Below, in pieces: positions 29,051 through 30,255 of a DNA stretch of 64,000 nt (position 1 is the stretch's first letter; each line of letters opens with the position of its first letter). Position numbers and translations under genes: made by a program. The DNA is taken from assembly GCF_055900595.2 (NCBI RefSeq), contig NZ_CM148325.1, one strand, 5' to 3'. The notes under the pieces are model-generated. The model had not been told where the DNA came from, did no database searches, and saw only the letters and a program-made list of their open reading frames with translations.

Positions 29051-30133
29051 GTGAAACCAGTAACGCTATACGATGTCGCGGAGTATGCCGGTGTCTCTTA
29101 TCAGACCGTTTCCCGCGTGGTGAATCAGGCCAGCCACGTTTCAGCGAAAACGCGGGAAAAAGTGGAAGCGGCGATGGCGGAGCTAAATTACATTCCCAAC
29201 CGCGTAGCACAACAGTTAGCGGGCAAACAGTCGTTGCTGATTGGCGTTGCCACCTCCAGTCTGGCCCTGCACGCACCGTCGCAAATTGTCGCGGCGATTA
29301 AATCTCGCGCCGATCAACTGGGTGCCAGCGTGGTGGTGTCGATGGTAGAAAGAAGCGGTGTCGAAGCCTGTAAAGCGGCAGTACACAATCTTCTCGCGCA
29401 ACGCGTAAGTGGTCTGATCATCAACTATCCGCTGGATGACCAGGATGCCATTGCTGTGGAGGCAGCCTGCGCTAATGTTCCGGCGCTATTTCTTGATGTC
29501 TCTGACCAGACTCCCATCAACAGTATTATTTTTTCCCATGAAGACGGTACGCGGCTGGGCGTAGAGCATTTGGTCGCATTGGGTCACCAGCAAATCGCGC
29601 TGTTAGCGGGCCCATTAAGTTCTGTCTCGGCGCGTCTGCGTCTGGCGGGCTGGCATAAATATCTTAAACACAATCAAATTCAACCGATAGCGGAACGGGA
29701 AGGCGACTGGAGCGCCATGTCCGGTTTTCATCAAACCATGCAGATGCTGAATGAGGGCATCATTCCTACCGCGATGCTGGTTGCCAACGATCAGATGGCG
29801 CTGGGTGCAATGCGCGCCATTACCGAGTTCGGGCTGCGCGTCGGCGCGGATATCTCGGTAGTGGGATACGACGATACCGAAGACAGCTCGTGTTATATCC
29901 CGCCATTAACGACCATCAAACAGGATTTTCGCCTGCTTGGGCAAACCAGCGTGGACCGCTTGCTGCAACTCTCTCAGGGCCAGGCGGTGAAGGGCAATCA
30001 GCTGTTGCCCGTCTCACTGGTGAAACGAAAAACCACCCTGCCACCCAATACGCAAACCGCTTCTCCCCAGGCGTTGGCTGATTCCTTAATGCAGCTGGCG
30101 CGACAAATTTCCCGACTGGAAAGCGAGCAGTGA
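29051..30133 (+). CDS. lacI: Lactose operon repressor
   Basis: GTG start at 29051 (MKPVTLYDVAEYAGVSYQTVSRVVNQ...), 360 aa; the track ORF begins 9 bp earlier. Confidence 0.96.
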   Translation: MKPVTLYDVAEYAGVSYQTVSRVVNQASHVSAKTREKVEAAMAELNYIPNRVAQQLAGKQSLLIGVATSSLALHAPSQIVAAIKSRADQLGASVVVSMVERSGVEACKAAVHNLLAQRVSGLIINYPLDDQDAIAVEAACANVPALFLDVSDQTPINSIIFSHEDGTRLGVEHLVALGHQQIALLAGPLSSVSARLRLAGWHKYLKHNQIQPIAEREGDWSAMSGFHQTMQMLNEGIIPTAMLVANDQMALGAMRAITEFGLRVGADISVVGYDDTEDSSCYIPPLTTIKQDFRLLGQTSVDRLLQLSQGQAVKGNQLLPVSLVKRKTTLPPNTQTASPQALADSLMQLARQISRLESEQ

Positions 30134-30238
30134 GCGCAACGCAATTAATGTGAGTCAGCTCACTCATTAGGCACCCCAGGCTTTACACCTGATGTGTCCG
30201 ACTCGTATGTTGTATGAAATTGTGAGCGGATAACAATT
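30127..30238 (+). promoter_or_regulatory. lac control region: O3 (30127-30146), CAP site (30145-30166), -35 TTTACA (30182-30187), -10 TATGTT (30206-30211), O1 (30218-30238)
   Basis: Sequence AATTAATGTGAGTCAGCTCACTCATT ... TTTACA-N18-TATGTT ... AATTGTGAGCGGATAACAATT read directly. Confidence 0.9.
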
Positions 30239-30255
30239 TCACACAGGATACAGCT

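Follow-up and report, generated by a model that had tools for sequence, protein, structure and literature searches.

The lac control region considered here lies between a full-length lacI and lacZYA in a 64,000-nucleotide stretch of DNA (NCBI RefSeq assembly GCF_055900595.2, contig NZ_CM148325.1; the whole stretch is called the window below), and it differs from that of Escherichia coli K-12 at 9 of 122 intergenic bases and at one further base in the last codons of lacI. We consider it very probable that this is an orthologous and functional lacI-lacZ regulatory region of a strain of Escherichia cryptic clade I, and that its departures from the textbook sequence are ordinary between-lineage substitutions under purifying selection. 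The architecture, CRP-activated and LacI-repressed with looping, would with high confidence be that of K-12, to judge from the aligned elements; with moderate to high confidence, the modeled regulation would also be quantitatively equivalent to that of K-12.

Results

Alignment of the Control Region to K-12

The complete control region occupies window positions 30126-30258 on the plus strand, and in the alignment its identity as such is a match far beyond chance. All of the sequence hallmarks of a LacI-repressed, CRP-activated lacP1 region were found: the operators O1, O2, and O3, a class I CRP site, the sigma-70 hexamers, and the flanking genes. Upstream, lacI (29051-30133, plus strand; 360 codons from a GTG start) ends with a TGA stop at 30131-30133, within operator O3 (AGCAGTGAGCGCAACGCAATT; 30126-30146, plus strand), which is identical to K-12 at 20 of its 21 positions and is centered at -82, 92 bp from the center of O1. 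The catabolite activator protein (CAP, or CRP) site (TAATGTGAGTCAGCTCACTCAT; 30146-30167, plus strand) has its center at -61.5, between 30156 and 30157; its pentamers, TGTGA and TCACT, are the same as in K-12, and its sole change, at 30156, is at position 11, in the central spacer. The hexamers of lacP1, TTTACA at -35 (30182-30187, plus strand) and TATGTT at -10 (30206-30211, plus strand; not the lacUV5 form), are both unchanged. They are separated by an 18-bp spacer (30188-30205, plus strand) that has the K-12 length and carries five substitutions, and they are followed by a discriminator, GTATGA (30212-30217, plus strand; GTGTGG in K-12), that carries two. By homology with K-12, transcription would start at the A at 30218, which the 21-mer of O1 overlaps (AATTGTGAGCGGATAACAATT; 30218-30238, plus strand, +1 to +21; identical to K-12). 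The Shine-Dalgarno core of lacZ, AGGA (30245-30248, plus strand), is also unchanged, and lacZ itself (30256-33330, plus strand; 1024 codons) begins with the ATG at 30256. Inside lacZ, on the minus strand, O2 (AAATGTGAGCGAGTAACAACC; 30619-30639) is identical to K-12 at 21 of 21 positions and is centered at +412, 401 bp from O1. The full-length open reading frames (ORFs) of lacY (33382-34635) and lacA (34701-35312), both on the plus strand, complete the operon; lacI and lacZYA have the same ORF lengths as in K-12 and are annotated likewise in a near-identical genome.

The substitutions were located by ungapped alignment with MG1655, over 122 intergenic bases. In the direction from K-12 to the window, they comprise T>C at 30156 (-62), in the center of the CAP site; T>C at 30189 (-29), T>G at 30191 (-27), C>T at 30195 (-23), T>G at 30196 (-22), and G>A at 30201 (-17), all in the promoter spacer; G>A at 30214 (-4) and G>A at 30217 (-1), in the discriminator; and A>T at 30249 (+32), between the Shine-Dalgarno AGGA and the ATG, just 3' of the former. 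The additional change, G>A at 30126, falls on the second position of lacI codon 359 and, at the same time, on position 1 of O3. It converts GGG to GAG (Gly359Glu), and in O3 it introduces the base that is present in O1 and O2. LacI differs from the K-12 protein at ten amino acids, none of them before residue 141 (A331P, R340Q, V353I, and G359E are the four nearest the C-terminus); residues 1-140, which comprise the DNA-binding headpiece and the hinge, are those of K-12.

A preliminary description of this sequence had reported the CAP site, the -35 and -10 hexamers, O1, and O3 at canonical spacing, with a number of base differences from the K-12 sequence and a LacI that ends in LESEQ. The alignment bears this out. 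A consensus promoter scan finds the identical hexamer pair and spacing in the window (30182-30211) and in K-12 and also lists one downstream match in each allele. Every difference that had been listed is present at its place, the K-12 strings given there agree exactly with the MG1655 record, and the LESEQ ending is caused by the change at 30126. The pairwise alignment to MG1655 that the same description had proposed as a check did not show the region to be identical to K-12, the outcome being the nine intergenic changes and the one in lacI.

Substitutions and Constraint

The distribution of the substitutions was assessed against a textbook set of contact positions that had been fixed before the data were seen: the intergenic part of O3, the two CAP pentamers, the -35 and -10 hexamers, O1, and the Shine-Dalgarno core. 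None of these 60 positions is changed, compared with 9 of the 62 others (Fisher one-sided p = 0.0017). The rate at noncontact positions (14.5%) does not differ significantly from that at fourfold sites in lacI plus lacZ (18.7%; p = 0.51), and the divergence of the control region taken whole is below the fourfold-site rate (p = 0.0003). O2 is exact despite the 20% fourfold-site divergence of the lacZ sequence that surrounds it.

A broader alignment brought together 18 sequences: five from clade I, ten from E. coli sensu stricto, and three from other Escherichia lineages. The count of variable columns covered 15 of them, three E. coli having no match to the placing anchor. Ten of the 18 spacer columns proved to be variable, and none of those in the -35 and -10 hexamers, the CAP pentamers, or the Shine-Dalgarno sequence. 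The preliminary description had drawn attention to a clustering of the differences in the spacer and the operator flank. Their location there is real, but differences from K-12 are not peculiar to the control region, the divergence being about 5% window-wide. The clustering would arise because purifying selection spares only the positions without known contact and is, by this comparison, a signature of constraint elsewhere, with nothing special in the spacer; neutral changes, too, would be expected to cluster in the spacer, which varies in each of the Escherichia lineages sampled. The primary operator itself varies naturally in E. coli proper, though not in the clade I allele: E. coli O145:H28 RM12581 (sensu stricto) has a changed central base of O1 (AATTGTGAGCGAATAACAATT).

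Lineage and Population Distribution

In a BLAST comparison with K-12, the window keeps the gene order from frmR to yahF, about 50 kb of shared synteny. Identity varies between 89% and 99% per 500-bp step, mostly 93-97%, and is about 95% overall in the syntenic part. When the lac, mhp, and prp segments of the window served as queries against the 5,426 complete genomes that RefSeq lists as "E. coli," the nearest relatives at all three loci were one small recurring set, consisting of eight essentially identical genomes and about ten others at 97-99.5%; the remaining E. coli are about 95-97% identical to the window at these loci. Exactly 18 of the 5,426 records carry the 122-bp intergenic allele at 100% identity, the next best match being 96.7% (four mismatches). 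The textbook K-12 allele, with at most one mismatch, is found in 2,557 of 5,386 matching records (about 47%).

The recurring set includes EC42405 and 2013C-4282, which are complete genomes assigned by core-genome phylogeny to cryptic clade I, a lineage that databases label E. coli and that is sister to E. coli sensu stricto, with an average nucleotide identity (ANI) to it of just over 95% (PMC10100065). These two are 98.8-99.5% identical to the window at lac, 98.5-98.9% at mhp, 97.3-97.6% at prp, and 100% in the 122-bp region, and the allele is invariant across the five diverse clade I genomes that were aligned. At prp the gap is small in the 64-kb window comparison, with E. coli sensu stricto at 96.8% versus 97.1-97.8% for the other clade I genomes. 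These relationships place the 64 kb of the window in Escherichia cryptic clade I and, by extension, presumably the rest of the genome as well. With such a source, the differences from K-12 would be part of a lineage-wide divergence of about 5%.

Direction of Change

Outgroups were obtained by a scan for the exact O1 21-mer in one genome per GTDB species, which yielded about 17 usable natural loci. The natural lac loci came from E. whittamii, Escherichia sp. E1V33, SCPM-O-B-8794 (a record titled E. coli), three Kluyvera, Citrobacter sedlakii, Tatumella, Pectobacterium, and Dickeya; none under the names E. marmotae or E. ruysiae was among the matches. At -1 and +32 the state of the window is common to E. 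whittamii, E1V33, SCPM-O-B-8794, and Kluyvera, and at -62 and -22 this is mostly so. The same four states (C at -62, G at -22, A at -1, and T at +32) also segregate within E. coli sensu stricto, where many strains have them (for example, ST69, NC101, AF57, and N3). By outgroup comparison, K-12 is the derived party at these four positions, most firmly at -1 and +32. At -27, -23, -17, -4, and O3 position 1 (G359E), the state of the window occurs in clade I alone, where it is fixed across the 18 genomes, and there the same reasoning makes clade I the derived party. The C at -29 is likewise fixed in clade I and is found elsewhere only in SCPM-O-B-8794, so its direction is ambiguous.

More than half of the species-representative O1 matches were fragments of pUC, pET, pQE, or Tn-type vectors in assemblies of Streptomyces, SAR11, cyanobacteria, and others; such matches in unrelated assemblies are contamination or engineered strains. 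In the natural loci of Pectobacterium, Dickeya, and Tatumella, the exact E. coli O1 21-mer lies 3' of a TATGTT-like -10 and a CRP-like TGTGA...TCCAC/TCACT, and in Pectobacterium the leader and the first codons are unlike those of E. coli lacZ.

Predicted Function

The effect of the substitutions on RNA polymerase binding was predicted with the energy matrix of Brewster et al. 2012 (PMC3521663, Text S2), a model that is local and additive, was built from point mutants of K-12, and was inferred in cells without active CRP (PMC3521663). As applied here, the matrix reproduces the published values for the wild type (-5.347 kT) and lacUV5 (-6.992 kT). The window allele scores -5.079 kT, a shift of +0.27 kT relative to the wild type, which in the weak-promoter limit corresponds to an occupancy of about 0.76-fold; each individual site, -29 included, accounts for at most 0.18 kT. 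Under this model the shift is within noise, negligible, and far below the UV5 effect. The suggestion in the preliminary description that the variants could shift basal expression or repression finds little encouragement in these figures, +0.27 kT as against -1.65 kT for lacUV5, although a small effect is still possible. Natural E. coli polymorphisms in the CRP and RNA polymerase sites have been reported to lie at positions of low impact and to alter binding by under 1 kT (bioRxiv 10.1101/003772).

Predicted mRNA folding makes the Shine-Dalgarno sequence and the AUG almost equally accessible in both alleles at 60, 80, and 100 nt. Within the folded segment, +32 (window 30249; T in the window, A in K-12) is complementary to +71 (window 30288; A in the window, T in K-12), a synonymous site in lacZ codon 11. 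The 80-nt fold, and no other, pairs +30 to +34 with +69 to +73 in a predicted helix of 5 bp that contains both sites and part of the Shine-Dalgarno sequence. A is the base at +71 in all 17 other sequences examined, which extend as far as Kluyvera and Citrobacter sedlakii, and T is the base at +32 in all but C. sedlakii (which has C); the A/T combination is confined to the K-12-type allele (K-12 and cq9). The case for the helix as a real structure is weak, because it would reflect a single evolutionary event, it appears in the 80-nt fold alone, and it is broken by C at +72 in E. whittamii and two Kluyvera. As the two sites are 39 bp apart, near-complete linkage is expected with or without pairing, and counts of recombinants are therefore uninformative.

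Divergence of the lac Genes

The genes of the operon have not diverged equally from K-12. At the nucleotide level and at fourfold sites, respectively, divergence is 5.4% and 15.2% in lacI, 6.7% and 20.1% in lacZ, 5.6% and 20.2% in lacA, and 1.1% and 4.3% in lacY. The lacY gene is 4-5 times less diverged than the other three, and the low-divergence block extends over about 33000-34500. It is 97.8-98.9% identical to all E. coli sensu stricto genomes and shows a normal synonymous divergence (19.8%) from E. whittamii. Because of this normal divergence, the pattern suggests that lacY is a tract of recombination or introgression between clade I and E. coli sensu stricto, and not a case of gene-intrinsic constraint.

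At the 5' end of lacZ, codons 45-94 (window 30256-30540) contain eight amino-acid replacements relative to K-12 within 50 codons. The excess divergence of the block 30001-30500 falls mostly in coding sequence and not in the control region. In the clade I strain RMDEC465, lacZ is annotated as frameshifted.

Flanking Segments of the Window

Between mhpR and lacI, the window contains a 1.8-kb segment (27147-28981) that is absent from K-12. Its two ORFs, at 27253-28041 and 28061-29014, encode an MBL-fold hydrolase and a DJ-1/PfpI plus AraC-type (GlxA family) regulator, named ovrA (OI-19) in some records. On its right side the segment ends about 5 bp before the -35 of the lacI promoter, so that the promoter is contained in the 3' end of the regulator gene. 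This promoter differs from that of K-12 by one spacer base (C>T), the 5' untranslated region differs by another, and the lacIq allele is not present. A second segment of about 5 kb (53015-58145), absent from the yahJ-yahK interval of K-12, encodes a sugar-type ABC transporter (a periplasmic binding protein, an ATPase, and two permeases) and an ASCH-domain protein. Two tandem arrays that resemble repetitive extragenic palindromic (REP) sequences, at 17467-17782 (period 100, 3.2 copies) and 60802-61161 (period 93, 3.9 copies), match repeated intergenic sequence of K-12, in the mhpE-mhpT interval and the yahH region; array copy number is one unit off in the near-identical genome Z0117EC0005. The cynX gene (35415-36596) is an uninterrupted ORF of 393 codons in the window and is annotated as frameshifted in Z0117EC0005.

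Discussion

If the control region is what we take it to be, LacI tetramers would bind O1 and loop to O3 or O2, blocking the CAP-dependent class I promoter lacP1, and cyclic AMP-CRP at -61.5 would recruit RNA polymerase to TTTACA-18 bp-TATGTT. The ten differences would have accrued at a roughly neutral rate where no protein reads the sequence specifically, about half of them on the K-12 side, and every contact position would have been frozen by purifying selection. Some considerations weigh against this account. The K-12-like expression of the clade I allele is a prediction from alignment and model; the RNA polymerase matrix may miss effects of spacer shape, of the discriminator, or of the start site; and any effects of the changes in the center of the CAP site (-62) and at O3 position 1 lie outside its energy score. 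In addition, the clade I-specific changes are concentrated in -29 to -4, and at 91.0% identity the block 30001-30500 ranks with the most diverged 500-bp steps of the window, though most of this divergence lies in the 5' coding sequence of lacZ. Finally, membership in clade I rests on the 64-kb window and its nearest relatives.

It could be argued that the clade I allele is instead a regulatory variant that alters lac expression, through the spacer or discriminator, the loss of an overlapping weak promoter P2, a slightly better O3, or the C-terminus of LacI (G359E, V353I, and R340Q); we regard this as unlikely. Five clade I-specific substitutions are fixed in all 18 genomes, and the change at -29, of ambiguous direction, is fixed in clade I as well, but fixation within a lineage is equally expected of neutral changes. 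The promoter-proximal changes do cluster in -29 to -4; the spacer, however, varies in every lineage of Escherichia that was sampled. Position 1 of O3 has moved to the base of O1 and O2, and O3 mutations can shift repression in either direction (Razo-Mejia et al., bioRxiv 10.1101/003772). Nonetheless, all the changes spare the contact positions, nothing beyond their location supports an effect, and the summed change in polymerase binding is the small one given above, both in total and site by site. As to P2, its -10 is presumably changed from TACACT to TACACC by the substitution at -29. A simple promoter scan lists P2 in neither allele, and the matrix was measured without CRP, the condition under which competition from P2 would show, and still assigns a small effect to -29. 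That the six changes fixed in clade I (-29, -27, -23, -17, -4, and O3 position 1, or G359E) jointly retune lac regulation is, in our estimation, similarly improbable; the possible routes would be the removal of P2, an altered open-complex or start-site behavior at the purine-rich discriminator GTATGA, and a slightly stronger O1-O3 looping. Were it true, such retuning could fit basal expression or induction kinetics to the niche of an animal-gut and often pathogenic lineage. An allele that did alter expression would also be a natural test case for sequence-to-expression models, the available one of which predicts no change.

Still harder to credit, and in our view highly improbable, is the idea that an otherwise ordinary E. 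coli acquired the divergent control region from another species, by horizontal transfer or recombination. The allele occurs in only 18 of the 5,426 genomes, and the lac operon is mosaic, lacY being far closer to E. coli sensu stricto than its neighbors are; but the atypical segment is lacY and not the control region, and it is atypical by its greater likeness to E. coli sensu stricto. The divergence of about 5% is not limited to lac but extends over all 50 kb between frmR and yahF, in E. coli gene order, and the closest relatives are the same at mhp and prp, with published clade I strains among them. Horizontal acquisition of the lac region was rejected on the uniform divergence across the window and the conserved gene order. 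To the idea that the differences are an artefact of sequencing errors or of a faulty K-12 reference in the preliminary description we give no credence at all: the MG1655 record contains the K-12 strings given there, and the allele is present at 100% identity in 18 independent complete genomes.

Viewed as ordinary divergence between lineages, the control region is a clear-cut instance of phylogenetic footprinting, seen in the most familiar of bacterial switches: at about 5% genome divergence, the contact bases are frozen and the others drift at the synonymous rate. It also illustrates that the textbook K-12 sequence is neither the ancestral nor the universal lac promoter of E. coli. The clade I allele is a compact lineage marker, exact in 18 of the 5,426 genomes and in no others. 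Both natural lac promoter variation and clade I were already known, and the exact sequence is present in annotated public genomes. A full-text search that combined cryptic clade with lac operon and lacZ found no literature on lac regulation in clade I; this is a gap of attention and not the sign of a new kind of thing.

Comparison with Known Systems

The lac region of the window has the same elements as that of K-12, in the same order and at the same spacing, with identical O1, O2, -35, -10, CAP pentamers, Shine-Dalgarno core, and LacI headpiece. It differs by the 9 of 122 intergenic changes, all at noncontact positions, by the G>A at O3 position 1, by ten LacI substitutions outside the DNA-binding domain, and by the two extra genes between mhpR and lacI. 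Nor does it coincide with the familiar mutant alleles. Its -10 is TATGTT, whereas that of lacUV5 is TATAAT; the -35 of its lacI promoter is GCGCAA, in contrast to the GTGCAA that defines lacIq; and its left CAP pentamer, the element altered in L8, equals that of K-12.

The study of natural lac polymorphism by Razo-Mejia et al. later appeared in Phys Biol 2014. Its conclusion, from 91 E. coli strains and eight other species, is the same as ours, namely, that the polymorphisms lie at low-impact positions and amount to less than 1 kT (bioRxiv 10.1101/003772); in that preprint we found no statement that clade I was among the strains. What sets the present allele apart is the combination of C at -29, G at -27, T at -23, A at -17, A at -4, and A at O3 position 1, which is confined to 18 RefSeq genomes. 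In the published description of clade I, the words lactose and lacZ are absent from the main text, and the names of the eight near-identical genomes that form the clone of the window were not found in the tables (PMC10100065). The identity of the window to K-12, about 95%, fits the subspecies-level ANI of just over 95% that was reported there for clade I.

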